From the NCBI GenBank assembly GCA_040219255.1, contig JAVJSW010000064.1, positions 1-50,541 of the forward strand: DNA of 50,541 nucleotides. The letters are read 5' to 3'. The position numbers were made by a program, and so were the translations under genes. The notes under the pieces were generated by a model that was given only the letters and a program-made list of their open reading frames with translations, did not search any database and was not told where the DNA came from. This DNA is from Sumerlaeia bacterium (GTDB lineage: Bacteria > Sumerlaeota > Sumerlaeia > SLMS01 > JAHLLQ01). Positions 10,067-47,159 of the stretch are shown here, one piece after another. The stretch's first letter is position 1. Each line of letters starts with the position of its first letter.

Positions 10067-10690
10067 TCATGCGAATACAACGCGAATGGCCGTTTGCCCG
10101 AGTTCCGCCAGGGCTTGACGGATCGCCGCCCGCGAGGCGTCTGGGTTGAGCGCCAGCAAATCGCTCCACGCGAATTCGCCTCCCTCGAAGGCCCTTTGAA
10201 TAAGGTTTGGCGGCAAGTCGGAATCGAAGTATTCCAGTGCCCAATGACGATAGTCTTGGGGGTCTCCGGTGACGTGGCGGAGCAGGAAGTTCCGCGCCGA
10301 CGGGACGGGTGGAATCCAGCGCCAGGGATCGTGGCTGGTCCGGCGCCAGCCGAAAAAGGTGAGTTCGTCCCAGGCGAAGGCCGGTTCGTCGAAGAAGGCC
10401 GAACCGGTCTCCGCGGGCAGTTCGGCTCGGGCGGCGGCCACTGCTTCCGGGGCGCCGTCGAGGCTGCCGGCTTCGGCGTCGTAGCCCTTGGCGAAGAGCC
10501 CCAGCGGCGTCCAGACCAGGAAGACTTGGCTCCCCTGGCCGTCGCGAAGGGAGGCCAGTTCCTGCTGCGGGGCCCAATGGGCGTTGTAGCTGACGTGGCG
10601 GATTTCCCATTCGGGCGAGAGGACCGCGTCGAGAAACGCCATCGCTTGCAGCGTGCGTCGGAGTTGGCTGGGGGAAAGGGAGGCGAACAT
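10067..10690 (-). CDS. Conserved hypothetical protein
   Basis: Globular-looking sequence (LDAVLSPEWEIRHVSYNAHW…LRDGQG…KGYDAE) with normal codon bias. Confidence 0.7.
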   Translation of the reverse strand: MFASLSPSQLRRTLQAMAFLDAVLSPEWEIRHVSYNAHWAPQQELASLRDGQGSQVFLVWTPLGLFAKGYDAEAGSLDGAPEAVAAARAELPAETGSAFFDEPAFAWDELTFFGWRRTSHDPWRWIPPVPSARNFLLRHVTGDPQDYRHWALEYFDSDLPPNLIQRAFEGGEFAWSDLLALNPDASRAAIRQALAELGQTAIRVVFA

Positions 10691-10820
10691 AACGCCCAAT
10701 GCTGTGCGCGGGGGTGATCGACGGTCAAGGCCTGCTGTGCGAAGATGAAAGGAGCCTGCGCGGGATCGCTTGCCGGCGGCGCGCGGGAGAGAAGGAGGCT
10801 CGGAGCGGTGGGGTCTTGGA

Positions 10821-12071
10821 TCAGGACGCCGGTTTCGGGCTCTGGTACATGGCGCCGATTTGCTTTTTGATGGTCGCGATGTCGGGGGCATAGCTATGCC
10901 ACACGGGCCGGAAGGCTTGATCTACGAGAACGACATAGGGCAATTGCCGGATATTTTCCCGCTCGATGATGTCGCGGACTTCGTGGGCCGGCGTTTCGAG
11001 GCAGATGAAGTCTCGATCGAGCACAGCCACCAATTGACCGTCGCCGTGAATACGTTCCATCAACTCCTCCGTCAGGACCGAACCCGGTACGGTGACCACC
11101 CAGAGAAGCCGCTTCTTGCCCATGCTCGATTGGGAGAAGCCAATGTTTCGATCGTCGACCCAACGGAGCTTGTCCCCCCAGCGGCTTTCCACTTCTTCGC
11201 GTTGCACGCCGAGCGCGAAGCGAGGGGTAAAATTTGCCACCAACTGGCCTTTATCGAAGTTGATCCTCACGATGGTGTTTCCATGTGGATTGACTTCTTT
11301 GACGGATGGATCGGCGATCCACGAGGTATTGTCGAGAACGATCTTATACTCCAGCTGACCGGGAAGAACCGGGATGTAGTACTCGTACGCGTTGGGAACC
11401 CGGGTCGGGCGCATTCGGTGCGAGTCCCGATCGATGATCGACGCGTTGTTGGCCCACGAATCCCAGCTTCCAACGATGTGTACCTCCTCGGTCATGCGCG
11501 TGAAGTAGCGGACTCTAAGATAGCTTTTCTTGTCGTTGGGGTTCTTGATCAGCACGGGGCTCATCAGATCGTTGGAGATATAGGCCGGCCACGGCGGTTC
11601 CGTCAAAGCGAGATCGAAAACGGATCCTTTGAGTTCATACTTCCCTTGAATCTTCATCCCTTTGTAGACGTCTTGGGCGCGGGGAAGGGAATCATGACCA
11701 TAGATCCTCTGGCGGCCGCCGAGATTATAGCAAAAGGCGTGGGAACCCGGAGGAACGGGGGCGAAGAATTCGAACAACCCATCCTCGTATGGACCGTACA
11801 TCCGATATTTCGGATCGATGACCGGATCCAATCCGTTGCGGGTTCCCCACCCATTGAAGCTTCCTGTCAGGAAAATGTCTTTGTGGCCAGGTGCCACGAT
11901 CCGAAAAAGAACACCGGTCGGCTGGACGATGATGGGGAGAGGAGTCACCCCATCAGGAGGTTCCACGGGAATCTCCATGCTGGAAACGACCGCTGTCGCC
12001 TGACTTGAAACGGAAGCGGGAAGAGCAATCAAAGAGCAAACAATAGCCCAAACAAAAAGACAATATTTCAT
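10821..12071 (-). CDS. Secreted protein: two CBM48/AMPK-beta-like glycogen-binding domains plus C-terminal thioredoxin-like fold without CxxC
   Basis: Signal peptide; IFLTGSFNGW…VPPG; VHIVGSWDSW…LPGQLEYKIVLDNTSWIADP…GNTIVRI; C-terminal LRW…KRLLWVV…LDRDFICL…LPYVVLVD. Confidence 0.75.
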   Translation of the reverse strand: MKYCLFVWAIVCSLIALPASVSSQATAVVSSMEIPVEPPDGVTPLPIIVQPTGVLFRIVAPGHKDIFLTGSFNGWGTRNGLDPVIDPKYRMYGPYEDGLFEFFAPVPPGSHAFCYNLGGRQRIYGHDSLPRAQDVYKGMKIQGKYELKGSVFDLALTEPPWPAYISNDLMSPVLIKNPNDKKSYLRVRYFTRMTEEVHIVGSWDSWANNASIIDRDSHRMRPTRVPNAYEYYIPVLPGQLEYKIVLDNTSWIADPSVKEVNPHGNTIVRINFDKGQLVANFTPRFALGVQREEVESRWGDKLRWVDDRNIGFSQSSMGKKRLLWVVTVPGSVLTEELMERIHGDGQLVAVLDRDFICLETPAHEVRDIIERENIRQLPYVVLVDQAFRPVWHSYAPDIATIKKQIGAMYQSPKPAS

Positions 12072-12095
12072 TGGTACGGCTTTCTAAACCGAAAA

Positions 12096-13568
12096 TTATT
12101 GAACGGCGGACATACGGAATCTCGGGTCGAGATTCCACTGATTGAACGAACCGCGCACGTAGACGCGTCCCGGGTGCTTTGAATCTTCGATCCGGAATGT
12201 CACCTCGCCCGTCTGTGAGTCGACCCGCGGCCATTCCGTTTCCGGCAGCTTGCGCTCGGCAAAGCTGCTAGGGACTTCAAATACGGAATTGCGGAACCCT
12301 TCAACCACCCGGGCGTTCGGATTAAGGGAATCCTCGGTCCAAACGTCCGGTTCGTAGTAGAAGCGATAGAGATAGATCCCGGGCTTGAGATTCACGGTGA
12401 GTCCCAGGGTTCGCTCCCCAGCGGCGGCGGCCGAAGCCGGAGCCACCGCGGGAGCCACGGCTGGGGCGGCCTCGCCGGGCGTCTCGGCCGGCCGGGCCGG
12501 TGAGGGCTCCGCGAAGGCGAACTGACCGGTCGCATAACCGAACGCGAAAAGTCCGGCCGCCAGCGTAAGCAGGGCCGTGGCGGCCAGTCCCGTCCACTTC
12601 AAGACCCCGTTGGCCGGCTTCGCATCCGCCTTGGCGGGACCCTGCGCGGCGGGAGCGGATTGGCGGAAATCGCTGCCGTACAGGACGGAACTGGAAGAAG
12701 CCCGCGACAAGGGCGTGGGGGGCGCCCCGGCCAGAGGGGCCGCTCCCTTGGCAGGCAACACGCCGGCCTTCGGCAACAAGACTTTAAGCAAATCGCTGGC
12801 GAATTCGGCGACTCGGGAATAGCGTTCGGCCTTCTTCGCCGCCATGCCACGCCAAAGAATCGCGTCCACCGCTTCCGGCAGCACGGGGTTGGTTTTCGAG
12901 GCTGGTGGACCGCCCGGAGCGGGAAATTCCCCCGTCAGCATCCGGAAGATCAGGATCGCAAGGGAATAAACATCCGTTCTTTCATCGATATCTCCCGAGC
13001 CATCGTACTGCTCCGGCGCCATGTATCGATGCGTACCCACGGAAGAGTTTCCCAGGACAACGGTTTTTTCGCCGTCGATCTTCTGGGATATTCCGAAATC
13101 CATAATCTTGATGTGGCCGTCGGAAGTCATCAGAATGTTGGACGGCTTGACGTCCATGTGGACGATACCCTTGCGGTGAATGTAATCGAAGCCCTTGGCG
13201 AAACTGACGACGATCCGGCACCAGTCCTCCCGCTTCAGCTTCCGGTCCTTGATCCATTCCTCCAGGCTGACACCGTCCACATACTCCATCACGACGTAGT
13301 AGAGGCCTTTGTGATAACCCCTGTCGAAGACGGTAATGATGTTTGGATGACTCAGTTCGGCCAGGACCTTCGCTTCCCGGTCGAAGCCTTGGATGAATGT
13401 TTCGTCGGTGCTCAATTCCGGATTGAGAACTTTGATGGCGACCTTTCGATCCAGCTTAAGCTGATTGGCCACGTAGACCTTGGCCATGCCACCCTGACCG
13501 CAAACGCCGAGAACTTCGTACGTTTCCGCGATCACCTCGCCGGGTTCTATCGTCAGTGGGACTCTCAT
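12096..13568 (-). CDS. Hanks-type Ser/Thr protein kinase with TM helix and C-terminal CBM48-like ectodomain
   Basis: GQGGMAKVY, VAIKVL, HMDVKPSN, DFG, YMAPEQ, DVYSL; hydrophobic helix WTGLAATALLTLAAGLFAFGY; start taken at ATG 13568. Confidence 0.92.
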   Translation of the reverse strand: MRVPLTIEPGEVIAETYEVLGVCGQGGMAKVYVANQLKLDRKVAIKVLNPELSTDETFIQGFDREAKVLAELSHPNIITVFDRGYHKGLYYVVMEYVDGVSLEEWIKDRKLKREDWCRIVVSFAKGFDYIHRKGIVHMDVKPSNILMTSDGHIKIMDFGISQKIDGEKTVVLGNSSVGTHRYMAPEQYDGSGDIDERTDVYSLAILIFRMLTGEFPAPGGPPASKTNPVLPEAVDAILWRGMAAKKAERYSRVAEFASDLLKVLLPKAGVLPAKGAAPLAGAPPTPLSRASSSSVLYGSDFRQSAPAAQGPAKADAKPANGVLKWTGLAATALLTLAAGLFAFGYATGQFAFAEPSPARPAETPGEAAPAVAPAVAPASAAAAGERTLGLTVNLKPGIYLYRFYYEPDVWTEDSLNPNARVVEGFRNSVFEVPSSFAERKLPETEWPRVDSQTGEVTFRIEDSKHPGRVYVRGSFNQWNLDPRFRMSAVQ

Positions 13569-13812
13569 CGGTCGGTGGTTGTCCTGCGTCGCGTCGGATT
13601 TCTGGAAGATGGGAGTTTCGGAAGTCGAGGTGGCGGAGACAATATAGGTCATCAATGTCAAGCTCTCAAATCGAGTCATTCGTGCAAAGCCACGCCCCCG
13701 CGTAAAGCGAGACCCAAACCAACCGCCTCGCCTCTGAGAATCAATGAGTTGCGAGGATAAACCGCCTGATTGCAAAGGAGACTGTCCCTCTTTGGGTCTC
13801 TTTTTGAGACTA

Positions 13813-14619
13813 GGACCGGTCGTCAATTGAGCCACACCACCGTTGCCGCCAGGTAAATTCCGCCCAGAAAGTTTCTCGCTCGTTCATCATAGCGTGTCGC
13901 GTTCGCCCGGTATTGTTGATGCCGGGCAAAGAAATTCTCGATCAGATGGCGCCGTATGTACAGGTGCCAGTCGGACTCGCGCGGCTTCTTGACGTTTGAT
14001 TTCGAAGGGATTACGACGCCTCGACCGGCCTCCTCGATTATGTCCGCGACGCGCTTTTGAGCGTCATGGCCCTTGTCGGCGATGATCGTTTCCGGCCCGC
14101 CCGGCACCAGCAAGCCGGGCAGCAGCACGTCCGCCCCTTAATCGTCGCGGAAGTTGCCACCGGTCAGGTGAAAGGCCAGCGGATTGCCAAGCGCATCGCA
14201 GGCGGCGTGGATTTTTGTACTCAGCCCTCCTCGGCTTCGGCCAATCGCCTCGGCGGCTGCCCCCCCCTTTTGCCCCTGCGGAGTGCTGGTGAGCGCGCAC
14301 GATGGTCGTGTCCATCATGGCGAATTCGTTTGTCAGGGTTCGCGGAGAGGGCGGTGAAAACGCGTTCCCAGACGCCCGTTTCGGCCCAACGCATGTGGCG
14401 CCGATGGACGTTCTTCCAGTCGCCGAAGCGCTCTGGCAGCTCACGCCAAGGGACGCCGGCGCGGTAGCGGTAGAGGACGGCGATAGCGTCCCATTGGGCC
14501 TACTCGGAGGGCGTCGCGGCGACTGGACATGGGGAGCGGACCGCTGGTCTGCGGTTGCAGAGATGCCTAGTGCTGGCGGAACGTTGCGAACAACGGCTGG
14601 CCTGTTTGACAACAGGCCC
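13813..14619 (-). mobile_element. IS5-family (IS427-like) element, ~807 bp, degraded
   Basis: Imperfect terminal IRs GGACCGGTCGTCAA / GGGCCTGTTGTCAA (rc); TA on both flanks (13811-12, 14620-21). Confidence 0.8.
13823..14612 (-). pseudogene. IS5-family transposase, frameshifted
   Basis: MDTTIVRAHQHSAGAKGG; A4G8 slippery run at 14260-14271; IIADKGHD, YIRRHLIENFF…ATRYD; additional frame breaks. Confidence 0.85.
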
Positions 14620-16469
14620 TAATAGAGCAGCCAATTTTGAGCGGCGGCCGGGCTCAAGCCCGATGCGCTCGGATCGATAGCAAAGAGACCGCTGTTGGAC
14701 AACGTGGAGCCTTTTGTCGATTTAGTCGTACTTTCCTGATAAACGTAGAAGCGATTCTTCGAGTCGAGATCCAACCGGATGATATCTTGATTGGAATCGA
14801 GGATAAGAATCCGATCATCGGGTTCGGTCACCATATCGCCATAGATGTTAAAGAAGACAGGAGTTGGACCACCGCCCTCAGATTTGAAATCGACCGCAAC
14901 TGACACGTTCTTGGTGACATGGTCGATTCTGTATAGAACCAGGGTAAATTGGTCGAGCACGAAGAGATCACCCTGAGAGTTCGGTGTAATCATGAGCGGT
15001 TGGCTAAGGGACGTTTGAGTCCCACCATCATAGAATGAGTCCTGCAGAACGACGCTTGTATCGCCTTGGGGCGAGAAAGAGACATCGTATACCTGAATTT
15101 CGACAGGGTTCAAAGTCAGAAGCGCCAGCGCACCATCGGGCATGAGGGCGATATCTCCCCGTGCAGAGGCAAAGAATTCGTATGACGTGTTGGAGAAGAG
15201 TTCAATCTCGGCGTCGAATGCACTGAATTCTGACAGGGAGGTGCGTCCATCGCGAAGGTCAAAAGCGAGGGAAAAGAACTGATTCTCAGCAAGCTCAAAA
15301 ATATTCGTCTGGCTTGTGATGATGGGGTTGTCGGGAAAATCGGCGAAAAATGTCCGATTGCCGGTTTCCAAATCGACTTCGTATAAATCGACTGCTTTAT
15401 CGCTATGTATGCTGTCGACCACAATAAGCGATTTTGTTTCATCGCGATAGAGCACAGCGGCAGGATACTCGATTTCCGGCCCGGCGCCGATTAGCGGACT
15501 GCCTAGGGACTCGCGACCGGAAAGCAGCGTCTTGATGCCAGTGGACGTGTCGATCTGGTTTATGCCACTGCCAGGCCCCCCGACTAAACGATGGCTTGTG
15601 TAGAGTGCACGCCGGCCGAATACCGGTTCCAGGCTGTTGTCAACGGTCACAATGGGGGAATCCAAAGGCGCATTGGCAACGCTGTTGCCCGAACGGTCGG
15701 ACGCATCCGTCGTCATCCTCAAACCCAGAGTCCCGTTGGCGCTGGGGTCCTGGAGGGTAACGCGGATGTCGTAGTTGAAGAAACCCTGAGCCCCGAAGAG
15801 CTGAAATGTGGTAATTTCAGCTTGCGATGCCAAAGTCCCCACGAGTTCAAGACCCTGGAGAATCGACTGCGACAGGTCTTCACCAAAATTGATTCCAAAA
15901 ATGGATGCTTGGAACCGTAGTTCATCCAGGTACGTGGGATTATCGACAACTGAAGTCAAAGTGGCGGTGGGAGGCGTGACATCGAAACGCACCGGCGCGG
16001 CGAAAACGGCTGTACTGAAGGACTCTCCCGCTCCGTCCTGAATGTCAGTTCCGACGGACATGACCAAGACGCCCTCCGTGGTGGGATCGTCCATCGTCAC
16101 CGTCACCAGGTATTCAGGGTCTGCTCCCGTCACGTTGATCGTCGCGCCGGCAAAGGATTGACCCTCGAAGTTCAACAGAATATCATCTTCGGTAAAGGTC
16201 GGACTGACCGGTTCGGAGAACGTAACGATGTACGTCGTAAAACCGTCGTTCGTGTATTGATCAACGAGAACGGCGGGGGTTATCGGGGGTTGAATCGTTG
16301 CCGTGGGATTGGTCCCGATGCCTTTGAGAGAGGACCGGGAGGACGGGTGCTGGACCTGCTGGGCAAAGCCCTGTGCAGCGAAATGGCAAAAAAATGCGGA
16401 TATGATTACGAGCCTGAGCATAATTACTCCCAAGATGACAAAGCAATGTGAGCGGGGAAAGTCGGACAT
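14619..16469 (-). CDS. Secreted acidic protein with Ig-like domains and a beta-propeller-like C-terminal half
   Basis: Signal peptide; VTFSEPV…DVTPPT…DRSGN Ig-like motifs; propeller-like blades; ends AAAQNWLLY. Confidence 0.75.
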   Translation of the reverse strand: MSDFPRSHCFVILGVIMLRLVIISAFFCHFAAQGFAQQVQHPSSRSSLKGIGTNPTATIQPPITPAVLVDQYTNDGFTTYIVTFSEPVSPTFTEDDILLNFEGQSFAGATINVTGADPEYLVTVTMDDPTTEGVLVMSVGTDIQDGAGESFSTAVFAAPVRFDVTPPTATLTSVVDNPTYLDELRFQASIFGINFGEDLSQSILQGLELVGTLASQAEITTFQLFGAQGFFNYDIRVTLQDPSANGTLGLRMTTDASDRSGNSVANAPLDSPIVTVDNSLEPVFGRRALYTSHRLVGGPGSGINQIDTSTGIKTLLSGRESLGSPLIGAGPEIEYPAAVLYRDETKSLIVVDSIHSDKAVDLYEVDLETGNRTFFADFPDNPIITSQTNIFELAENQFFSLAFDLRDGRTSLSEFSAFDAEIELFSNTSYEFFASARGDIALMPDGALALLTLNPVEIQVYDVSFSPQGDTSVVLQDSFYDGGTQTSLSQPLMITPNSQGDLFVLDQFTLVLYRIDHVTKNVSVAVDFKSEGGGPTPVFFNIYGDMVTEPDDRILILDSNQDIIRLDLDSKNRFYVYQESTTKSTKGSTLSNSGLFAIDPSASGLSPAAAQNWLLY

Positions 16470-16530: not shown

Positions 16531-17336
16531 TTAGCCGCCGACCTCAACCGCCACCAGCGTCACATCGTCGCTCGTCAGGTTGCCGCCGGCCCATTCACTG
16601 ACATCGTCGAGGATCGCGCCTTTCAACTCGGACAGTGGAAGGGCCGCGTGACGACCCAGGCTTTCACGCAGCTGCACCAGGCCGTAGCTCTCACCGGTTG
16701 CCGGATGGGGCGCTTCGAGTAGACCGTCGGTGTAGGCAAAGAGGCGGTCGCCGGCGGCCAGGTCCAAGTGGCGGGGTGTGAACTCGGCGTTCTCGAAAAT
16801 GCCGAGAGTCAGGTTGAGTCCCTTGCGGGGCCGCCGATTGTCCACCGTGTCCCAGGCTCCGCGGCCACGGCGGTAAATCAGCACTGGCGGATGACCCGCA
16901 TAGGCCACTGTGGCCGTCGGTCCGTCGGGGGTCACTGTCACGACGACCGCCGTGCTCATGGCCTCCAGGCCCCATTGGCGGGCGCTGGCGTTCAGCATTT
17001 CCAGCACCGCTTCGCCGTCGGCCTTGTCGCGGTGCGTGCGCAACGCTTCCAGGAGCCATTCGCTCACATGGGCGACGCTCTCGCCATGCCCCGCCACATC
17101 GGCCAAGGCCAGCCGCGTCACATAGCCCCCGCCGCATTGGCCAAGGCCAGCCGCGTCACATAGCCCCCGCCGCATTGGCTGACGAAGTAGATGTCGCCCC
17201 CTTTGGAGCCGCCGCCCGCCACGCCAGACCATGCGCTGAGTGTTAGCTGCGCGGTCCGCGCGTCCACGTCCAGATTGCGCACGCCGCCCCAGATTTCCCC
17301 GCAGGACAAGGCGTGAAGGGGCATCGGCACTGCCAT
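16531..17336 (-). pseudogene. PP2C/SpoIIE (RsbU-like) phosphatase frameshifted by a 38-bp tandem duplication
   Basis: GGDIY lies in the 5' ORF; LADVAGHG, AGHPP, YTDGLLEA and DDVTLV lie in the 3' ORF; QCGGGYVTRLALA appears in both frames. Confidence 0.88.
17101..17179. repeat. Exact 38-bp tandem duplication
   Basis: GGCCAAGGCCAGCCGCGTCACATAGCCCCCGCCGCATT at 17101 and 17139. Confidence 0.97.
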
Positions 17337-21948: not shown

Positions 21949-24078
21949 TCAGGTCCACTCATCCGCCATGGCGGCGAATTCTTCCTCGAGGGCGGCGGCC
22001 AGGATCGCGTCGTCGTCGCCGTCGCCGCTCCGGGTGGGGTCCGCCGTCAGGATCGGTTCCTGCGCGGGCGGCGGCTCGGTGGGGCGGGGTTTGCGGGGAA
22101 GCGTGACGATGAAGCGCGATCCTGCTCCCACGCTGCTTTCCACGGCGATGTCGCCGCTCATCAGGCGGGCCAGTTTGCGCGAAATGGCCAGGCCGAGCCC
22201 GGTGCCGCCGAACTCGCGCGTGGTCGATGCGTCCACCTGGAAGAACTCGTCGAACACGTCGCGCAGCCGGTCCGGTGGAATGCCGATCCCGGTGTCCGAG
22301 ACGCTGATGGAAACGGCTGAGGTTCGGGTGCCGAGTGTGGCGCGGCGGGCGGACAGGGTGATGACTCCGTGCTGGGTGAATTTCGCCGCGTTGCCCAGCA
22401 GGTTGATGAGGATTTGCTGCAGCCGGATCGGATCGGCCTGGATTTGCCCAAGCCCCGGCTGGATGTCGAACTCGAGGCGGTTGTCGTTTTTCTCCAGCAT
22501 GGGCGCGATGTGATCGGTGCATTCTTGCAGGAAACGGGGCTTGGGCTCGTCCAGCGAAATCGGCTCGTAGTTGATTTCGATGCGCCCCGCTTCGATTTTG
22601 CTCAGGTCCAGCAGGTCGTTGATGAGGGCGAGAAGGTTCTCGCCACTCGACTGAATCAGTTCGATGTTGCGGATTTGCCGCTCGTCCAGCCGGCCCGCCG
22701 CCTTCTTCGCCAGGATGCGCGAGAACCCGAGGATGGCGTTCAGAGGCGTACGCAGTTCGTGACTGATGGTGGCGATAAACTGGCTCTTGAGCCGGTTGCT
22801 TTCGATGGCGCGGTCTTTCTCGCCCGCCAAATCGCGGGCCCGGTTCGCGATCCGCTGCTGCAGCTTCACCCGCTCGGTGATGTCGTCGACAAAGATCACC
22901 GCGCCCAACACCTCCCCCTCGTCGCCCCGCTCCGGGATCGCCTTGATCGAGAAGGCCGCATGCAGTTCGTCGCCCGTGCGGAAGCGTGCCCGGGGCAGTT
23001 CCACCACCTGGCCTTTGAGCACCTTCTTCAGGTGCGGCAAGAGCCCCGCGTCCTCGAGAAAGGCCATCTGCAAAAGATTCGGTGACGCCTCGCCTGTCTT
23101 CCATCCGAACAAAGGGCCGATTCGCTGGCGAATGAGCGCGTTGGCGTCCGTGACGCAACCCACGCTGTCGACCACCAGAACCCCGATGGGGGCCTGCTCG
23201 AAGGCGGGCCAGCGGCTCCGGAAGCCCGAGCCGGCGGGCCCGGCGGGGGCGTCGTGGGCCTGCAAGAACACGACCGCTGGAAAGGATTTCCGGCTCTTGC
23301 CCACTCGCCGGCCAGAGTAGCTCAGGCGAATCGGCAGGCTCTCCTCGCCAGTCGTTTTCAGCGAGTAGAGTTCATCCCAACGAATCCCCTCGGCCACGGC
23401 GAGGCGCAATCTGCGCCAATCCTCCGCGCCGCCAAGACGTTGCAAGACCTCGTCGAAACGGCCACCCACCAGGGCGCCGCCCTCCATGCCGAGCAGTGTC
23501 GATGCGAAGGGGGTCGCGTAGCGCACGCGGCCCGTTTCCTCGATCACGAGCGCCCCCTTCTCCATCGCCTCCACCACGGCGTGCAACTGCTCGGCCCGCT
23601 TGCGGTGGCGCACCAGAGCCCGTTCGCGGGTGGACCGCTCACGTGTGTCCACGCCCAGCACCAGCCACTCCGATCCCATCCTCAGGAACGTCATGGAAAG
23701 AGCCACCGGCGCGCCCTCGCGGCTCTGTATCGTCATGTCCATGCGGCTAGTGGTGCCGATGGAGGAGTTGCGCTTGAGATCGAGCAATCGCCACGGGTTC
23801 GAAGGCACCAGATCGAGGAACGACTTGTTGAGCAACTCCTTGGGGCCGTGGCCCAGTTTAGCCACCGCCAGAGTATTCACGTCGGTGATCTTCAGGTCCT
23901 CGGACAGCCGGAAGAACAGGGCGTCCGGCAGGCCCTCCATGAGCAGGTGGAACTTCGACGAGGGCACGAAAGCGCGCTTGGTGGCGACGTAGAGCGCGAT
24001 GGCTGCCAGAAGAATCCCGAAGCCAAAGCCGGCCAGCAGCAGCATCACGGCGTCGCCCTGCTCGCTCAGGGTCAGCAT
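21949..24078 (-). CDS. PAS-domain sensor histidine kinase (N-terminal TM, about 3 PAS domains, HisKA, HATPase)
   Basis: SHELRTPLNAI, NLLGNAAKFT, DTGIGI, GGTGLGL; no receiver domain; start uncertain. Confidence 0.93.
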   Translation of the reverse strand: MLTLSEQGDAVMLLLAGFGFGILLAAIALYVATKRAFVPSSKFHLLMEGLPDALFFRLSEDLKITDVNTLAVAKLGHGPKELLNKSFLDLVPSNPWRLLDLKRNSSIGTTSRMDMTIQSREGAPVALSMTFLRMGSEWLVLGVDTRERSTRERALVRHRKRAEQLHAVVEAMEKGALVIEETGRVRYATPFASTLLGMEGGALVGGRFDEVLQRLGGAEDWRRLRLAVAEGIRWDELYSLKTTGEESLPIRLSYSGRRVGKSRKSFPAVVFLQAHDAPAGPAGSGFRSRWPAFEQAPIGVLVVDSVGCVTDANALIRQRIGPLFGWKTGEASPNLLQMAFLEDAGLLPHLKKVLKGQVVELPRARFRTGDELHAAFSIKAIPERGDEGEVLGAVIFVDDITERVKLQQRIANRARDLAGEKDRAIESNRLKSQFIATISHELRTPLNAILGFSRILAKKAAGRLDERQIRNIELIQSSGENLLALINDLLDLSKIEAGRIEINYEPISLDEPKPRFLQECTDHIAPMLEKNDNRLEFDIQPGLGQIQADPIRLQQILINLLGNAAKFTQHGVITLSARRATLGTRTSAVSISVSDTGIGIPPDRLRDVFDEFFQVDASTTREFGGTGLGLAISRKLARLMSGDIAVESSVGAGSRFIVTLPRKPRPTEPPPAQEPILTADPTRSGDGDDDAILAAALEEEFAAMADEWT

Positions 24079-24319
24079 TCCCGCGCCGGTCAACCAGAGG
24101 GACTCGAGGGAGAAGTTGAGGGAACTCGGCAGAATCACGGCGGGATCGGAATTTCGTGGGATGGCGATTACGTGACGAGGCAAATTGGCACGGCAAAGGA
24201 GCAAAGACTAGCAGAAACCGCTTGTAACGCGCCTTTTTTCTTTAACTTGGTTCGGTTCCTGCGCTATTCCTTCTTCCGGACTTGGCAACGGGCGGGTCCC
24301 GGGAAAGGATTGGTCCGAA

Positions 24320-29440: not shown

Positions 29441-32400
29441 CTACCGCGCCGCTTCCGCCACCAGCGCCACCGCGTCCGCTTCGTAAACCACCACCAATCG
29501 CACTCCCCCGCCCACTTCGAGGCCCTCCTCGCTGGCGAAGGTGCCGCTGACCGGGCCACCGGTGACGATGTCGAAACGGTCGCCCACGGTGGGCTGGAAG
29601 CCGTTGGCCAGGCTGACCGCCAGCGTGCCCGCCACGCGGGCGCCGGCGGTGTCGCCGACGCGCAGGTGGTCGTAGTCGGTGCCTTGGGCGGTGCCGCCGA
29701 GCTGGATCTCGATCCGCGCCGTGGAGGCCAGCGGGCAGGTGCCCAGGATCGTCAGGGTGCCAATGCCGTCGCCGCCCGGAGCCACCGTGCCCCGCAGGAA
29801 ATCCTGGGGCGGGTTGAATTCGCGGAAGGTGATCTGGCCTGTGCCGGCGAGGATGCCGCTTGGCGCGAAATCGATGACTCCGGCCCGGGTGAAATCCATC
29901 ACGGTGGGGGCGTTGACTTCGAAGGTGCCGGTATTGAGGAACTCGCGGGCGAAGATGCGCGCGTTGGATTTGAGGAACCGAATCGTGCCGCTGTTGTCGA
30001 GATTGGCTCCGGAACCGGGCACGGCGCAGTCGTTGTCCAGGTTGAAGGTGATCAGCCCGGCGTTCTCCAGGTGGCAATTGAAGGGGAAGTAGGGGGTCGA
30101 GCCGCCGTTCTCCGAGGTGACCGTCGCCGTGCCGGTGGGGTGGTTGATGAAGGCGTGCTCGCTGCCCGAACCGGCGCCGAAGGTCGTGGTGCTGAACCGG
30201 CGGTTGACGACGTTGACGGTGCCGAAGTTTTCGAAGTCGGCACCGATGGAGGTGTTGTGATCGGCGTAGAAGGTGGCGCCTTCCTTGTTGATCGCTCCGG
30301 CGCCGAAGAAGACATCGGCGGTGCCTTGGCGAACGACGCTGCCCGAGTTTTCGAAAGGCACGAGGATTTGAGCGGTTCGCAATTCATAGTCGCCTAGAAT
30401 TTCCAGCGAGGCGTTGGACGAGTCGCGCGCGGGCCGGATGATCGTGGGGACGGTGTCGAAGGCAGAGACTTGGAACCGGTCGGTCCTGAGCTTCGATCCC
30501 GCCGCGATGACCATGGGCCCTTCGAGGTCGAGGACCGTGCCCAGCAGCGAAAGCGTGCGCATGCCTGTGCCTTCCGTACCGACGTCTAGCGATTCGGCGC
30601 CGATGGTGAATCGCGTCGAAGTGACCGTGTAGGTACCTGGCGCGTTGATGTCGACGGTGTCGCCAAAGGTGGGCCGGCGGCCGATGTCCCAGTTGGTGTC
30701 GACGTTCCAGTCGCCGGTGGTGCCTGTGGTCCAGGCCGCGGCGCCGTCCTCGATGACCTGGAACCGCCAAAGCGTCGAACCGGACAGGCGGTTTCCGAAT
30801 TCATCGAGGATGTCGAAGCCGGAGAAGCGGACCTCGTAATTCCCCGCCGGGAATGGGACGGGATAGGTGAGCGTGACGGTCTTAGCGGCGTCATCGTAGG
30901 TGAAGTTCCCCCCCGGCACGCGGAAGGAGTCCTCATTGTCGGCGTCGTCAATGGGGAAGAATCCGTCGGGTCCGGCGGACCAGACGAAGAAGTTGGCGTC
31001 CGTATCGTCGGCGTCGAAGGTGCTGACATCGACCCCGAAATCGAAGGTCGCGGTGATCTGGTTCAGGGTTTCGGGCGTCTGGATCACGGTGCCGTCGGCG
31101 GGTGTGAAGGCGGTCAGGGTCACGAATTCCACGTCGAAGGACCATGAGAACTCTCGCGAGAGGGGGTTGCCGTTGGCGCTGCGGATTCCGGTTTTTAGCA
31201 AACCGCTCTTGAAACCCCCGGGGATCGGCGGGTCGAAAGTGGCGACGGCGGTGCGGGTATCGGGGAAATACTCAACCGACACGGGCTGAATTTCTGTTTG
31301 GCCAAAGCTGCCCTTTTCGGCGCCTTTCGAACCGAAGTCTTCTTCGATCAGGACAAACGTCCCGGTGGTCAGGCTGTCCGGATCCATGTCGACGCCAAAG
31401 GTGGCTTCCAGCCGATTCGTGCCCGGCGGCACGGTCGAGCCATCTTGAGGGATGACGCTCAGTGGCGACGGCCCTTCGACTTCGAACTCCCAGGAGAAAT
31501 CTCCGGCCAGGGGCGAACCGGTGCGATCCCTGACATCCCGGCTGACCTGCACCTTGTAGCTCCCGGAATTGAGGGGGTCGGTGAAGGAACCGGTGACGGT
31601 TCGCGCCGCGTCATCGTAGACAAGCGATTCGAAGGGTACGAGGTTGTCGATCCCCTTGTCGCTCTGTGTCGTGGTTCCCACTTGGACGGTCTGGCCATTG
31701 AAGGTCAGCGGGTCCATCGGCCGGTCGAAGGTGAAGGAAATTTCGCTGACCGCGCCCAGAGGAAGGACCGCGAAATTCGGCGGCGTCGTCGAAACCACGG
31801 TCGGCCCCAGCAGGGTGAAGGACCACTGATAGATATTCGCCAGCGGATTGCCCAGCACATCCGCCACGTCCATGGTGACTTCGCCCCGGTATTGTCCGGG
31901 ATCGAGGGGGCGGAAGAATGCGAGCGAGGCAACGCCCGTCTCGGGATCGAAGGTGAGGCTGTCGGGAATGACGGGTTCTTCCGCCGGATTGACGCCTTTC
32001 AGTTCGCCATCCTTCAGGGGTCCATTGCCCGAGTCCAGAATGCGGAAGAGTTTGATGGAGTCGCGTGTGATGGTGGAGGGAGCCATGGCGCCCTCGAAGC
32101 CGACATCGACGCGTGTGACCGAGGTATTGGCGATCTGCTGACCAGAGGACGGAACGGTGAATTCGACGCGCGGACCGCGGACTGTGAAGGTCCAGGTGAA
32201 TTCGCTGTCCATGGGAAGGCCATTGCGGCCCTCGACGGTGGTGGTCAGCCGGCCGGTATAGTTGCCCACCGGCAAGGGCGAAGCGGGCAGGAACTCGGCG
32301 GTGGCGGCTCCGGCGATCACGCGAAGAGCGCCGGAAATGACCGCGTCGTCGCCCGTGCCCAGGGTGCCGTCGGCGCCGTGATTGACGATCTGGAAGGAAT

Positions 32401-35400
32401 CGGCGGTCAGGCTCGCGGCGTTGGGGATCTGGGAGAAATAGGCCTGAACTTTGGTGTTCGTCGGCACATTGGAGAAGGCGGTGGGGATGGTCGCGAGGAC
32501 CTCGATGGGTTCGGTGTTCTGCGCGATCGGAATCGATAACTCTTCGGCGAAGGTGAGGTTGCCGGCCGTATCGACGGCGAAGCCGGAGACGGTGAGCGAT
32601 TCGCCCGGCGTGAACGGCACGCGCACCGTTGTCTGGAAGGGATAGGACGAGTCGTTGGTCAAATCCGCGCCGTCGAGGCGCAGCGTCACATTGCGCACTT
32701 GCACATCGTCGGTGGCGTTCGCCGTGATGACCAGTAGATCGCCCTCGGTAACGGGCCCGGTCAGGGGTTCGCCGTCGACGCAGGCTTCGAGCACGATCAC
32801 CGGAGCGACGGTCCCGGTTTCCGCGGCCTGATAGGCCAGCACCGCAAGCCCGGCTTCCGAGTCGGCGACGTAGGCCAAGCCGTTGCCGATTTCCACGGCG
32901 GCGGCCAGGCCCGGCGTTTCGAACTCCTGGATGAAGTCGTTGGTGATGGCCGGATCGGACACATCGTAGATCGAAATGTGATGCGGGCCGTCGTCGGTCG
33001 AGTTGGGACTCACCGCGGCGACGCCTAGCCCAGCGCCGTTCGAGACGATTTGCTTCCATCCGAACTGTGCCGTATTGGCCTCGCCGAGGAGGGAGGGGCG
33101 GAAGGGATCGGACAAGTCGAAGGTGTTGTAGCCGGAGGTTTCGATGGCGAAGAGTGTGTCTTTGCCCACGAATAGGCGAGGCCGGCGCTGGCCCGCGCCA
33201 ATGCCGCCGTCGTAGAAGGCGCTTCCGGTGCTGCGCAGCAGTGGCCCATCGAAAAGCGCGTATGTCTGCACCGAGAAGCCGTTGGTGCCGGAGAGCGAGT
33301 AGAGGATGCCCTTGCCCAGGCGGAGGTCCTGCACCGGCGAGAAGGTGGATTGGGTAGCCAGGAGCAGACCGGTGACCGCGTCGTACACGCGAATCTGGCC
33401 GTCGCGCCAGCCGCTGAAAACCAAGCCGGCGCCCACTTCGACGCTCAGGCATTCGTTTTCCGTTTCCTGCACAAGGCGCAGCAGAACCGGGTTGGCCGGG
33501 TCGGACAGATCGACCATGGCCATGCCGGCCCGGCCCAGCGCCAGCGCCGCCACGCCGCGGTCGTAGGCCACGGCGCCCGCTTCGCCAGGCAGCAGGAGCA
33601 GGGACAGCAGCACCGGCGACCGCCCCGCGAAGGCGTTGAAGACAGCAAGGCCCTGGCCTTCGGCGGCGACGAGGACAAGTCCGTCGCCACTCCGAACGTC
33701 CGTCGCCGTGCCGGGGAGGAGGGCCCGCGCGAGCAATCCCGTCTGGCCCGCGAGGCCATCCAGCGGGTCGCGCCCTTGGATCACCTCCTCGCCATCGTCC
33801 ATGTCGTCGTCGTCCGTGTCCGGGTTCGCGTCGCTGGTGCCGATGATGGCTTCGATTTCGGCGGTCAGGCCGTCGCCGTCGTCGTCCGGTGCGGTCGAAG
33901 GCGAGAAGAGGAACGGGTCGAGCTGCAAGTTTTGACCCGAAGGCAGGCTTGTGAATTCCTTATCGGCCACGAGGAACGATTTGGGATGGAAAACGCGCGC
34001 GCGGTAGTCCGTCTCGGCCCGAAGGCGAATGGGGCGGGCGAAGACTTCGCCGTAGCTCTGCACCGTTCCCCGGCTGGTGCGATTGCGGTCCAGGTTGTCG
34101 AGACGATAGAACATCTTGCCGGTCAGGGTGCGGTTCGCCTCGGCGGCGAGTCCCTTCTCGGCGATGGGTTCGCTGGAAAGTCCCCGGGCCCGCAGGGCCT
34201 CGGCCAGCGGGTCGACGGTCCTGGACAGGGTTCCACCGTTCAGCCGCAGGAGCACGTCGTCCACAGAGGGCTGGCCGAGCGACAAGAGGTTCTTCGGAGT
34301 GGGCGGCGTTCCGGCCTGTACCGGGATGGTGACGGAGCGGGTGCATTGGGTCCCGCAGGGGGACTCGAGCGTCGCCGTCACCGTTACGTCTCCTGCGGTG
34401 GGCATTTCCACAATCCCGCAAGTGCCCGTCAACGGTACTCCGTTGGAGAGTTGCCAAGTCAATTCGCCGTCGGAGCTCTCGAGGCCGACATTGTTGGGGA
34501 AGTCGCGATACGAGCAAATGACCACCAATTCCCCCTCGAAGATCGAACGGTCGCCGGTTTCGACGAAGCGGGTTGTGACGGGAGCGAACTGCACGCTTTC
34601 CAGAGCGCAACGCGCTTGACTGCCAACGCTGATGGGGACGACGACGAGGCAGACATCGCCGCAGGCGGTCTCGTAACGCGCCCGCAAATCGAATGTACCC
34701 GGCGTGCAAACCTGGAATGCAACAAGGGGCGACTGGGTACCGAGCGCACCGAATCGCACATCGACTCCCGGAGGCGCCGACCATGTCAGGCTTCCGCCAG
34801 TCGTTTGCAGCGTTCTGCCGTCGCTGTCGAGGGCCTCGGCGAGGATCGTGTCGTTGATCTGGGCCGGGAATTCGCCGTTCGCATTCAGGATTTGCACATC
34901 CGCCAGATTGCAGGCGATTTGGTCCAGTTCTTCCTGTGGGATCGTAAAGCTGATCGTGCGTTCGCAATCGCCGTCGCCGCAGGGAATGCTCAGCTCGGCG
35001 GTGATGAAGTGGGGACCGGGGCCACAGAATTGAGCCATGAAGACATGGCCCGCGGCGGCCTGGGGCTCGGCGGTAGGGGCGAACCAGTTGACGATGCCCT
35101 GGGTGTGGTCGAACGGGACGCTGAAGGTGCGCCGGCCTCGTTGGCCGCCTTCGATCGTGATCGGTCCAAGGTCGCACTCGGCGGGCGTTACGCCCTCGCA
35201 TTCGTCCCGGGCTTCGCCGCCTTCCACTGTCGAGCCGGGGGCGGTGCCGTGCCAGCCGGGTTGGGGAATGCCCACGCCCGGGTCTGTGCAGATCAGGGTG
35301 CCGTCCTGGGAAACCGTCATGGACCCGGCGATTTCAAAGCGCCCGGTGTCGTGATTGAAACTGAAGAGGGCGCTCTTTTCGCCCGGAGCGAGCGGCTGAC

Positions 35401-36694
35401 CCGATTCCGGGTCGGGCAGGTTCGGGAAGCAGGCCACAACGGGTTCTGCGAAATTCTCGGGGCCATCGGTTTGCACCGTGATCACCAGGGGCATCGCCAG
35501 GTCGTCGGGCAGGGGCTCGGGCAGGCGGTCCGCCGGCACCGGGGCGATCCCCACGCGGCCGCCCACTTCGCCGTCGTCGGCGTAGAGGGCTCCCTGCGGG
35601 ACGATCAGTCCGACGCCCGCGAATTCGGGGAACTGGGTCAGCACCGCGCCGGGGAATCCGACCGATGTGTCGCCCGTTTCGTTCAGCACAACGAGGGAGC
35701 CCTCAGGCACGAGCGGCAGGTAGATCTCCCCCACCGAAGTTTCCACGCCCGCGTTGGCGAACCACTTCTTGCCCACGAAGGGATAGTATGGCCCGCCGGG
35801 AAAGAGCGTCGGATCGCCGCCGGGAGTGGTGGTCACGGTGCGGCCGTCGATATAGACGAAGAACTCGCCTGCGGGGACGCCTTCCATGGTGAAATTCCCC
35901 GCCATGTCGGTCACGGTAAAGACCGTGTCTTCAGCGCCCTGGAGGTAAATTTTCACGCCCGCCAGCGGATCGTTCACGGTGACCGGCGAGCCCTTGGCGG
36001 CGGAGAGTTCGGAGGCGAAGACGCGGCCCATGACGGATGTGCCGGGCAGGCCAGCGAGAGAAAGAGTTTCGAATTCCAGGCGCCCGATGCCCCCGGGCGA
36101 TCCGTCGTCATCGGCGTCCACCGGCCGGCCAAAAAGATCCCGCAGTTCTTCGCCATCGACGTAGATGCTGACGACGGCGGCGGAGGGCAGGACGGACTGA
36201 TAGAAGAGCGAAACGGTCCGGCCATCGGCGGAGAGCTGCAACCGGGCCGGAAGCGCCTGCTTCGCGAAGAAGGCTCGGATCGCCTGAGAGGTCACCGTCG
36301 CCGGGTCCAGCGGTTCGTCGAAGGTCAGAATCGACTCGCGGTGAACGGCCACGCCGTCCTCGCCATCGGCGGGGGAAGATTTGAGCAGGCGGGTTCGTTC
36401 GCCGGAAGGCGTTGGCGTCGGTGTCGGTGTGCCGGTCGGCGTGGGCGAGGCCGTGGGCGTCGGAGTGGACGTTGGGGTCGGGGTGGGCGTGGGCGTGCCG
36501 CCCAACGTCAAAGACCGCACGAGGTCCGCTGAGTCAAACACGCCATCGGCGTTGAGGTCGGTCCGGAGGGGACCGTCTTCCAGCAGGCCGGTCACCAGGT
36601 CCCCGAAGGGTGGGGTCCCGGCATGGATCGCCGAGGACAGGAACGACGCCGCAAGACACACCAGAAGGGTACGGCAGAAAGACAGACAACGCAT
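29441..36694 (-). CDS. Giant (~2417 aa) secreted multidomain protein
   Basis: Signal peptide; dockerin/EF-hand-like DLNADGVFDSADL; PT linker; SbsA/Big_5-like Ig repeats (…D..GNPL…Y/FSWxF); Cys-paired modules; DDDGDGL Ca-binding repeats; LVIVD-like propeller; beta-helix-like C-terminus. Confidence 0.85.
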   Translation of the reverse strand: MRCLSFCRTLLVCLAASFLSSAIHAGTPPFGDLVTGLLEDGPLRTDLNADGVFDSADLVRSLTLGGTPTPTPTPTSTPTPTASPTPTGTPTPTPTPSGERTRLLKSSPADGEDGVAVHRESILTFDEPLDPATVTSQAIRAFFAKQALPARLQLSADGRTVSLFYQSVLPSAAVVSIYVDGEELRDLFGRPVDADDDGSPGGIGRLEFETLSLAGLPGTSVMGRVFASELSAAKGSPVTVNDPLAGVKIYLQGAEDTVFTVTDMAGNFTMEGVPAGEFFVYIDGRTVTTTPGGDPTLFPGGPYYPFVGKKWFANAGVETSVGEIYLPLVPEGSLVVLNETGDTSVGFPGAVLTQFPEFAGVGLIVPQGALYADDGEVGGRVGIAPVPADRLPEPLPDDLAMPLVITVQTDGPENFAEPVVACFPNLPDPESGQPLAPGEKSALFSFNHDTGRFEIAGSMTVSQDGTLICTDPGVGIPQPGWHGTAPGSTVEGGEARDECEGVTPAECDLGPITIEGGQRGRRTFSVPFDHTQGIVNWFAPTAEPQAAAGHVFMAQFCGPGPHFITAELSIPCGDGDCERTISFTIPQEELDQIACNLADVQILNANGEFPAQINDTILAEALDSDGRTLQTTGGSLTWSAPPGVDVRFGALGTQSPLVAFQVCTPGTFDLRARYETACGDVCLVVVPISVGSQARCALESVQFAPVTTRFVETGDRSIFEGELVVICSYRDFPNNVGLESSDGELTWQLSNGVPLTGTCGIVEMPTAGDVTVTATLESPCGTQCTRSVTIPVQAGTPPTPKNLLSLGQPSVDDVLLRLNGGTLSRTVDPLAEALRARGLSSEPIAEKGLAAEANRTLTGKMFYRLDNLDRNRTSRGTVQSYGEVFARPIRLRAETDYRARVFHPKSFLVADKEFTSLPSGQNLQLDPFLFSPSTAPDDDGDGLTAEIEAIIGTSDANPDTDDDDMDDGEEVIQGRDPLDGLAGQTGLLARALLPGTATDVRSGDGLVLVAAEGQGLAVFNAFAGRSPVLLSLLLLPGEAGAVAYDRGVAALALGRAGMAMVDLSDPANPVLLRLVQETENECLSVEVGAGLVFSGWRDGQIRVYDAVTGLLLATQSTFSPVQDLRLGKGILYSLSGTNGFSVQTYALFDGPLLRSTGSAFYDGGIGAGQRRPRLFVGKDTLFAIETSGYNTFDLSDPFRPSLLGEANTAQFGWKQIVSNGAGLGVAAVSPNSTDDGPHHISIYDVSDPAITNDFIQEFETPGLAAAVEIGNGLAYVADSEAGLAVLAYQAAETGTVAPVIVLEACVDGEPLTGPVTEGDLLVITANATDDVQVRNVTLRLDGADLTNDSSYPFQTTVRVPFTPGESLTVSGFAVDTAGNLTFAEELSIPIAQNTEPIEVLATIPTAFSNVPTNTKVQAYFSQIPNAASLTADSFQIVNHGADGTLGTGDDAVISGALRVIAGAATAEFLPASPLPVGNYTGRLTTTVEGRNGLPMDSEFTWTFTVRGPRVEFTVPSSGQQIANTSVTRVDVGFEGAMAPSTITRDSIKLFRILDSGNGPLKDGELKGVNPAEEPVIPDSLTFDPETGVASLAFFRPLDPGQYRGEVTMDVADVLGNPLANIYQWSFTLLGPTVVSTTPPNFAVLPLGAVSEISFTFDRPMDPLTFNGQTVQVGTTTQSDKGIDNLVPFESLVYDDAARTVTGSFTDPLNSGSYKVQVSRDVRDRTGSPLAGDFSWEFEVEGPSPLSVIPQDGSTVPPGTNRLEATFGVDMDPDSLTTGTFVLIEEDFGSKGAEKGSFGQTEIQPVSVEYFPDTRTAVATFDPPIPGGFKSGLLKTGIRSANGNPLSREFSWSFDVEFVTLTAFTPADGTVIQTPETLNQITATFDFGVDVSTFDADDTDANFFVWSAGPDGFFPIDDADNEDSFRVPGGNFTYDDAAKTVTLTYPVPFPAGNYEVRFSGFDILDEFGNRLSGSTLWRFQVIEDGAAAWTTGTTGDWNVDTNWDIGRRPTFGDTVDINAPGTYTVTSTRFTIGAESLDVGTEGTGMRTLSLLGTVLDLEGPMVIAAGSKLRTDRFQVSAFDTVPTIIRPARDSSNASLEILGDYELRTAQILVPFENSGSVVRQGTADVFFGAGAINKEGATFYADHNTSIGADFENFGTVNVVNRRFSTTTFGAGSGSEHAFINHPTGTATVTSENGGSTPYFPFNCHLENAGLITFNLDNDCAVPGSGANLDNSGTIRFLKSNARIFAREFLNTGTFEVNAPTVMDFTRAGVIDFAPSGILAGTGQITFREFNPPQDFLRGTVAPGGDGIGTLTILGTCPLASTARIEIQLGGTAQGTDYDHLRVGDTAGARVAGTLAVSLANGFQPTVGDRFDIVTGGPVSGTFASEEGLEVGGGVRLVVVYEADAVALVAEAAR

Positions 36695-36851
36695 CAGGTC
36701 ACCGCTTATTTCGAATTTTAGCTTCTGGAGCCAATGTCCGGCGACGGCAAGTTGAGTCAACGGCAAAAGGCGACAGGGGGAATCGCCGTTGCCCAGGGGC
36801 TTGCCGGATCCCTCCCTGACAGCCGCCGGAGGCGACTCGAGCGCCCCCCGG

Positions 36852-36922
36852 ATTGGGACACCCAAGCCAAAGTTTGGCATACCAAATTACGGTTTGACTC
36901 CGCCCTCGCCCCCTCCCTTAAT
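36852..36922 (+). promoter_or_regulatory. Candidate sigma70 promoter with two tandem palindromic operator-like sites upstream of heme oxygenase
   Basis: ATTGG-N4-CCCAA (36852) and TTTGG-N4-CCAAA (36873), 21 bp apart; TTGACT-N17-CTTAAT. Confidence 0.45.
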
Positions 36923-41317: not shown

Positions 41318-41659
41318 GGGGCATAGGCAGGCAGGGCCGCCCTGGTTGCGGTCGGCGGCGAGCGGCCGGAACTCGCCGAAGCCGTCCCCTGCATCATTGG
41401 CTCTCGTTTATGTCAGCGATGGATCGAACCCGTCCAGGAGTCAGTTGGCATTCCATCGCACGGATTGCGTGACGAGACGCGTGCATCAGGCATCGCGGCT
41501 GCCATGGTCCGGGCACATGAGTTGCGTAGATTCATGAACCGCAAAACTGGTTTTCGTCAGGAGGCTGCTCCTCCGCATGCCCGTCGGTCCTCGGGTTTCT
41601 CGCGATCAGACGCATGCCATTGCCTTTGCAATACAATTCCTCTTCTCCAGGAGCGAAAC

Positions 41660-43705: not shown

Positions 43706-43791
43706 CCAGAGCGCTTCACATGACCGACCGCGGCCCGGTTCGCTGGGCCGCCTTCCATCCCCAGACCCTACCGAGCAAGGAAAACTGACTG

Positions 43792-47157: not shown

Positions 47158-47159
47158 AT

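Follow-up and report, generated by a model that had tools for sequence, protein, structure and literature searches.

Two adjacent genes were analysed in contig JAVJSW010000064.1 of a Sumerlaeia bacterium (assembly GCA_040219255.1). The contig, 50,541 nucleotides long and analysed whole, is called the window below. Both genes lie on the minus strand, i.e., a kinase gene and a downstream partner gene, with 24 bp between them. The product of the upstream gene is a Hanks-type Ser/Thr kinase that spans the membrane once and has its kinase domain inside the cell. By profile alignment and structure modelling, its ectodomain is identified as a circularly permuted module of carbohydrate-binding module family 48 (CBM48), the type of AMPK beta. 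The canonical C-terminal half comes first, and a connector leads from it to the N-terminal half, after which the protein ends. As an explanation of the whole locus, we slightly favour a receptor kinase that would sense alpha-glucan through the permuted CBM48, with a neighbour that is not obligate. The features of the kinase gene are listed here, with the hidden Markov model (HMM) and AlphaFold2 (AF2) support where it applies.

12096..13835, minus strand, kinase frame, open upstream to a GTG at 13835
12096..13568, minus strand, Ser/Thr kinase gene (P0001), ATG at 13568 giving 490 amino acids (aa), stop codon included in the range
12771..13520, minus strand, Hanks-type kinase domain, residues 17-266 (Pfam Pkinase)
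12531..12587, minus strand, single transmembrane helix predicted at residues 328-346 by a Kyte-Doolittle scan (1.77 over 19 residues)
12414..12530, minus strand, Ala/Pro-rich stalk from membrane to ectodomain, residues 347-385, about 40 residues (from the sequence)
12102..12413, minus strand, predicted permuted CBM48-like ectodomain, residues 386-489, about 105 residues (unit HMM 133.7 bits; AF2)
12264..12401, minus strand, canonical C-terminal half, residues 390-435, HMM positions 48-93, holding R402, W410, and N427
12222..12263, minus strand, connector that links the former C- and N-termini, residues 436-449, here ...ETEWPRV
12111..12221, minus strand, canonical N-terminal half, residues 450-486, HMM positions 4-33, with GSFNQW (W478)

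The catalytic domain was recognized by Pfam Pkinase (PF00069) with E 4.8e-51 and 174.1 bits vs a cut-off of 31.7 bits. The catalytic motifs were present, i.e., VAIK at 43-46, HMDVKPSN from 137, DFG at 157-159, and APE at 184-186. The kinase is classed as non-RD because the arginine of HRD is replaced by methionine (HMD). No PASTA repeats were detected in the kinase by Pfam. The NCBIfam model PknB_PASTA_kin (NF033483) scored 273.9 bits, below its cut-off of 450, and aligned to residues 10-292 only. The public gene call for the kinase (P0003) is 518 aa long, with its ATG 28 codons upstream of 13568.

A reading made earlier from the sequence alone (the sequence-only reading) had placed a CBM48-like region after a transmembrane helix. 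The helix and the relation to CBM48 stood, but the order is not canonical and the domain is circularly permuted. Pfam AMPK1_CBM matched residues 389-433 of the ectodomain, covering profile positions 37-80 of 85 only, at E 0.0017 and 19.0 bits, below the gathering score of 26.8. The last 40 residues of the kinase resemble the first half of CBM48, i.e., by GSFNQW and by a BLASTP match to domain 1 of the partner. The stalk is too short to hold an N-terminal CBM48 half. Of 184 segments cut from 89 proteins with tandem arrays, 150 were used to build a canonical CBM48 HMM. On the kinase, this HMM aligned residues 390-435 to its positions 48-93 (32.4 bits, iE 9e-11), and then residues 450-480 to its positions 4-33 (20.1 bits, iE 7e-7). 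The protein ends four residues after the N-terminal half. The reversed order of the halves was also given by the canonical HMM in all 24 other complete proteins with the permuted unit.

The closest solved relative of the permuted-unit family profile was the AMPK beta1 CBM (1z0n/1z0m, E 1.3e-10). It was aligned in two reversed stretches, i.e., chain residues 21-37 and 42-88. The break point sits in a four-residue loop, because only chain residues 38-41 separate the two stretches, and in the canonical domain the alignments place it in the hairpin loop that follows the 'PM' position. The connector is conserved in the family with the consensus VPGGAxDxxGxRxxWPxVNDxTGEV, and the kinase version is more divergent.

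The ectodomain (115 residues, 18-row alignment) was modelled by AF2 with a predicted local distance difference test (pLDDT) of 92.1, a predicted TM-score (pTM) of 0.82, and eight strands. The first 10 residues of the model had a pLDDT of 64. The model suggests that the ectodomain folds as one rigid, compact beta domain, and the pTM and pLDDT scores point to strand packing between the two halves. Foldseek of this model against the PDB gave no matches at E<=0.001, and the best was a CBM25 with a TM-score of 0.42. This null is expected of a permuted sandwich, because Foldseek depends on sequential order. By the alignments, the ectodomain has both halves of CBM48 and lacks only a loop.

The relatives of the ectodomain were searched at two levels. 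Word-index searches with kinase residues 375-490 and 300-490 matched only the protein itself. An exhaustive phmmer search with residues 376-490 gave 139 proteins at E<=0.001 among 1.84 billion cluster representatives. The permuted unit was carried by 26 of the 139, at 69-148 bits with the unit HMM, counting the kinase itself and one 67-aa fragment. The 25 other carriers are thus 24 complete proteins and the fragment. A complete permuted unit was lacking in 113 proteins, 89 of which gave canonical tandem CBM48 segments. These remaining matches were mostly ordinary tandem CBM48 arrays, on which the unit HMM straddles the domain borders with lower scores. In 22 of the 25 other carriers the unit lies at most 15 residues from the C-terminus, and the other unit-bearing proteins are less than 50% identical to each other. 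The unit is probably extracytoplasmic in general, because several carriers start with a signal or anchor segment. By these profiles the permuted unit forms a separate family, mostly C-terminal in proteins predicted to be secreted or membrane-anchored.

Six kinases were among the 139 matches, i.e., the kinase of the window, P0026, P0035, P0040, P0046, and P0083, and all six carry the permuted unit. In each, the unit follows a single transmembrane helix at about residues 330-370, and in P0046 Kelch repeats are added after it. Four of the six are non-RD (HMD in one, HLD in three). The architecture of kinase, transmembrane helix, and permuted unit thus recurs, by sequence, in at least five other kinases. 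This recurrence and the circular permutation are the two points that go beyond the sequence-only reading. The other carriers have FGE-sulfatase domains (P0036, P0038, and P0054), CarboxypepD_reg domains (12 proteins), or no Pfam match. A tree of 32 permuted units was poorly resolved, with 3 of 29 inner branches starred. The kinase label changed three times on it, and the weak tree also allows one origin.

Seven of the carriers, P0011-P0017, have two tandem permuted units after CarboxypepD_reg domains. The canonical CBM48 model reads these as half, full, and half domains. If the end halves pair, the chain would close on itself.

No family in Pfam or NCBIfam models the permuted unit as such. NCBIfam on five family members and the ectodomain gave no match beyond a chance-level T9SS_plug (E 0.0066). 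Proteins with the unit are annotated at best as half a glycogen-binding domain, because these databases lack a model of it.

The predicted ligand comes from contact positions. Four positions of AMPK beta1 were compared, i.e., W100, K126, W133, and N150, of which N150 is presumably a glycogen-contact residue. According to a review (PMC6274970), W100G and K126Q of AMPK beta1 abolish glycogen binding, and W133L weakens it. The equivalents in the kinase are W478, R402, W410, and N427, with arginine in place of the lysine. Most non-kinase members of the family have W, K, W, and N at these positions. The ectodomain would therefore be expected, from its residues, to bind an alpha-1,4/1,6-glucan at the cell surface or in the periplasm, either maltodextrin or a polymer like glycogen. 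The anatomy of the protein is well supported. For its function, sensing of alpha-glucan by the kinase is the preferred inference.

The proposed mechanism has three parts. The permuted CBM48 ectodomain would bind alpha-glucan outside the cytoplasm. A multivalent glucan would then bring kinase molecules together and change the kinase output. The partner would be a second alpha-glucan-binding protein, probably co-transcribed, which shares the ligand and is not an obligate co-receptor. A wider proposal is more tentative, with less than an even chance. In it, the permuted unit would be an undescribed CBM family that serves as the ligand-sensing ectodomain of a set of bacterial receptor Ser/Thr kinases, among them the kinase of the window. 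These kinases would read extracytoplasmic alpha-glucan directly, i.e., the product of the cell's own GlgE pathway or starch-derived dextrins.

The partner gene and its features are as follows.

12072..12095, minus strand, spacer from the kinase stop codon to the partner ATG, 24 bp
10821..12071, minus strand, partner gene (P0002), predicted to be secreted, 416 aa
12003..12071, minus strand, signal-peptide-like N-terminus, about residues 1-23, hydrophobic segment 4-22, also in homologues
11592..11945, minus strand, CBM48-like domain 1, about residues 43-160, GSFNGW, low-confidence insert 133-147
11232..11555, minus strand, CBM48-like domain 2, spanning about residues 173-280, all four contacts present (W206, K243, W251, and N265)
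10842..11204, minus strand, predicted thioredoxin fold lacking CxxC, about residues 290-410, with VPGSV where the active site would be and C357 invariant

The sequence-only reading had described the partner as a protein with a signal peptide, two CBM48-like domains, and a thioredoxin-like domain lacking CxxC. This was borne out, for the domains by Pfam, Foldseek, and structure matches in the Atlas. Pfam AMPK1_CBM matched the partner in two stretches with 36.5 bits (cut-off 26.8), and Pfam CBM_48 with 23.3 bits (cut-off 22.4, E 8e-5). The AF2 model (pLDDT 71.5, pTM 0.42) shows two beta domains followed by a C-terminal domain of the alpha/beta type. In Foldseek, the partner matched the CBM48 regions at the N-terminus of branching enzymes (5gr0, E 2.7e-8), and its C-terminal domain matched the thioredoxin 2lst (E 6.3e-5, TMt 0.71). 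The Atlas matches of the C-terminal domain were Thioredoxin_7/DsbH clusters with TM-scores of 0.70-0.75. No CxxC was found in the seven aligned members of the partner family, and no Pfam thioredoxin family matched the partner at E<=1. The contact equivalents of domain 1 are incomplete (W, C, none, none), and the four contacts of domain 2 are invariant in the seven-member family. From sequence and models, the partner is predicted to be secreted and to have two sandwiches of the canonical CBM48-like type and a thioredoxin fold that is redox-dead.

Six homologues of the partner were found with 42-48% identity, and the family was seen only in Sumerlaeota-type assemblies. One of the homologues, from Candidatus Sumerlaeia, is named by NCBI 'glycogen-binding domain-containing protein'. 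A genome scan for partner homologues gave five loci in four assemblies, and four are titled Sumerlaeota or Sumerlaeia.

The two genes lie in a block at 10821-16469, which consists of the partner, the kinase, an insertion sequence (IS) remnant, and a gene for a 616-aa protein. The GC content at third codon positions (GC3) is 0.61-0.70 in the block vs 0.73-0.87 in the flanking genes, and its GC is 0.56-0.60 vs about 0.65. The remnant, an IS5-type DDE transposase (13823-14612, minus strand), lies directly upstream of the kinase, between it and the 616-aa gene. It is split over two frames, one at 13823-14128 (Pfam DDE_Tnp_1_2, E 6e-8) and the other further upstream at 14064-14612. A search of its surroundings revealed no convincing terminal inverted repeats. 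The 616-aa protein (14619-16469, minus strand), directly upstream of the remnant, has a hydrophobic N-terminus, is probably secreted, and has no Pfam match. The block may be a recently acquired or rearranged segment.

Several points weigh against alpha-glucan sensing with a non-obligate neighbour. The glucan ligand rests on four conserved positions, and at one of them the kinase has R where AMPK beta1 has K. The main objection to a glucan ligand in kinases is that P0035, P0040, and P0083, three of the five others with the unit, have lost the equivalents of the lysine and the asparagine, and one of them also the second tryptophan, so that glucan binding is not a necessary property of the unit in kinases. 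The partner was modelled by AF2 with no more than moderate confidence. No Hanks kinase or permuted unit was found within about 6 kb of a partner homologue at any of the five loci. The sole promoter-like site upstream of the ATG at 13568 was no more than chance level in a consensus scan. Adjacency of kinase and partner may be a recent rearrangement, because an IS5-type remnant lies upstream and the GC3 of the block is below that of its flanks.

The kinase and the partner may be unrelated neighbours, joined by rearrangement and serving separate processes. The remnant, the GC3, and the pairing, which is not conserved, agree with this. However, the 24-bp spacing suggests one transcript, and a six-frame HMM scan found these two as the only CBM48-type proteins in the window. 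We consider this alternative unlikely.

Somewhat less probable still is a permuted unit that serves as a dimerisation or protein-binding module, or binds another polymer, with a CBM48 ancestry that is structural only. The three kinases without the equivalents of K126 and N150 favour it. FGE-sulfatase and CarboxypepD_reg domains, with which the unit is found in other carriers, have no alpha-glucan link, and the conserved connector (WPxVNDxTGEV) makes a new surface absent from canonical CBM48. However, W478, R402, W410, and N427 are all retained in the kinase of the window. The four contacts are also kept by most non-kinase members, and this is difficult to account for if the unit has no sugar ligand.

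The sequence-only reading had proposed a receptor/co-receptor pair. In such a pair, the kinase ectodomain and the partner would bind each other directly or via a bridging glucan. The gene layout given by the sequence-only reading was correct, i.e., two co-oriented genes with a spacer at 12072..12095, and no terminator-like site was found in this spacer on the strand of the genes by consensus scan. CBM48-type modules are present in both proteins, and both have 'WP' in the segment after the NSVxxV strand. The motifs that it quoted as shared are also present, but they are not specific. They belong to the generic CBM48 consensus (GSFNNW...NPM...NSVLEV in 150 segments), and the similarity between the two proteins is weak. 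BLASTP of kinase vs partner gave E 0.002 over 51 columns, hhalign gave 73% probability over 38 columns, and the partner-family profile scored 4.4 bits on the kinase vs 69-148 bits among permuted units.

The proposed check of the gene neighbourhood for the same pairing went against the pair, since a Hanks kinase is missing within about 6 kb at all five loci. The sole kinase near partner homologues was an ABC1 kinase in L004, and the partner family has its own variable contexts. Alpha-glucan enzymes adjoin the partner homologue in two of the five loci, which, like the GlgE-pathway cluster of the window, counts in favour of the alpha-glucan reading. In L001 (7246-9873, plus strand), a GH57+DUF3536 gene starts 46 bp downstream of the homologue, and in L002 (8203-11336, plus strand), a CBM20-esterase and a GH13 alpha-amylase follow it within 2.5 kb. 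Complex prediction of partner residues 36-416 with the ectodomain (separate alignments, no controls) scored 0.00 in both runs, which gives no verdict and counts neither way. A dedicated receptor/co-receptor pair is therefore unsupported, and we consider such binding improbable. The pairing evidence allows no more than a shared ligand and probable co-transcription.

Pfam sees only half a domain and the protein ends right after GSFNQW...RM, but a decayed or truncated ectodomain, i.e., two half-domains left without their own fold by a deletion or premature stop, has a negligible chance, as the arrangement of half, connector, and half ends 22 of 25 other proteins of less than 50% mutual identity, the AF2 model is confident (pLDDT 92, pTM 0.82), and seven proteins carry two units in tandem. 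A truncation or pseudogene reading was rejected on these grounds, i.e., recurrence in the family, the AF2 fold, and the tandem units, and is close to refuted.

Other genes of the window were also recorded. A SpoIIE/PP2C-type phosphatase (16531-17232, E 1.3e-34), on the minus strand like the kinase, lies about 3 kb upstream of it. A multi-PAS histidine kinase with HisKA and HATPase_c is at 21949-24204 (minus strand). A giant open reading frame (ORF) of 2479 aa with a Big_5 domain (29441-36880, minus strand, E 2.8e-41) probably encodes a surface protein. An alpha-glucan cluster of the GlgE pathway lies at 41465-48950 (plus strand), about 30 kb from the kinase and partner. It has the GlgE maltosyltransferase (GlgE_dom_N_S, E 4e-49), a further GH13 with DUF3459, and a TreS-maltokinase fusion of 1121 aa (Alpha-amylase, Malt_amylase_C, and Mak_N_cap). 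Downstream of the partner, an ORF at 10067-10891 (minus strand) has no Pfam match, and its listed start overlaps the partner end. Its true start is probably an internal ATG near 10690.

The sequence-only reading knew of no described example of such a system, and none was found in the literature searched either. Subscription-only texts and supplements were outside this search, in which no bacterial transmembrane kinase with CBM48 was found (rice work only), no permuted CBM48 was reported, and nothing appeared on a eukaryotic-like kinase with a glycogen-binding domain. By title and abstract, the AMPK1_CBM literature held nothing on bacterial kinases. To our knowledge, very few Hanks-type receptor kinases of bacteria have a known ligand, apart from the case of PASTA and peptidoglycan. 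The sensors of such kinases listed in the accessible part of a review (PMC6213207) are PASTA and PknD only. The accessible part of PMC10223318 concerns the domain order of MalS, not CBM48.

The locus gives a testable hypothesis, i.e., an ectodomain of about 105 residues with a predicted alpha-glucan ligand and named contact residues. If binding is confirmed, a permuted member would be added to the starch-binding CBM clan. Polysaccharide sensing would also be linked to Ser/Thr phosphorylation in little-studied phyla such as Sumerlaeota.

The known systems share parts of this arrangement. The partner domains are like the tandem canonical CBM48 of amylases, pullulanases, and branching enzymes, as seen by Foldseek (5gr0) and Pfam. 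However, the partner has no catalytic domain and ends with a CxxC-less thioredoxin fold. The unit of the kinase differs from tandem canonical CBM48 in that it starts and ends mid-domain. The starch-binding modules CBM20 and CBM21 are related by circular permutation, which is a precedent for a permutable beta-sandwich. That case differs, because it concerns another CBM family and has no link to signalling proteins.

Like the PASTA kinases (PknB, PrkC, and StkP), the protein has an intracellular Hanks kinase, one transmembrane helix, and an extracellular sensor of a glycan-binding type. Unlike them, its sensor is predicted to be a permuted CBM48 and not a peptidoglycan-binding module, and its catalytic loop is non-RD (HMD). 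The closest likeness is to the AMPK beta CBM (CBM48; 1z0n/1z0m; PF16561 AMPK1_CBM), in which a CBM48-type module is tied to a Ser/Thr kinase and the contact positions W100, K126, W133, and N150 correspond to W, R, W, and N in the ectodomain. In contrast to AMPK beta, the module here is permuted, fused to the kinase chain, outside the membrane, and bacterial, and its glycogen binding is predicted. The C-terminal region of AMPK beta that binds alpha and gamma has no counterpart in the kinase (no Pfam hit, and the protein ends four residues past the unit). If the wider proposal is true, the kinase would be an independent counterpart, outside the membrane, of glycogen sensing by AMPK.

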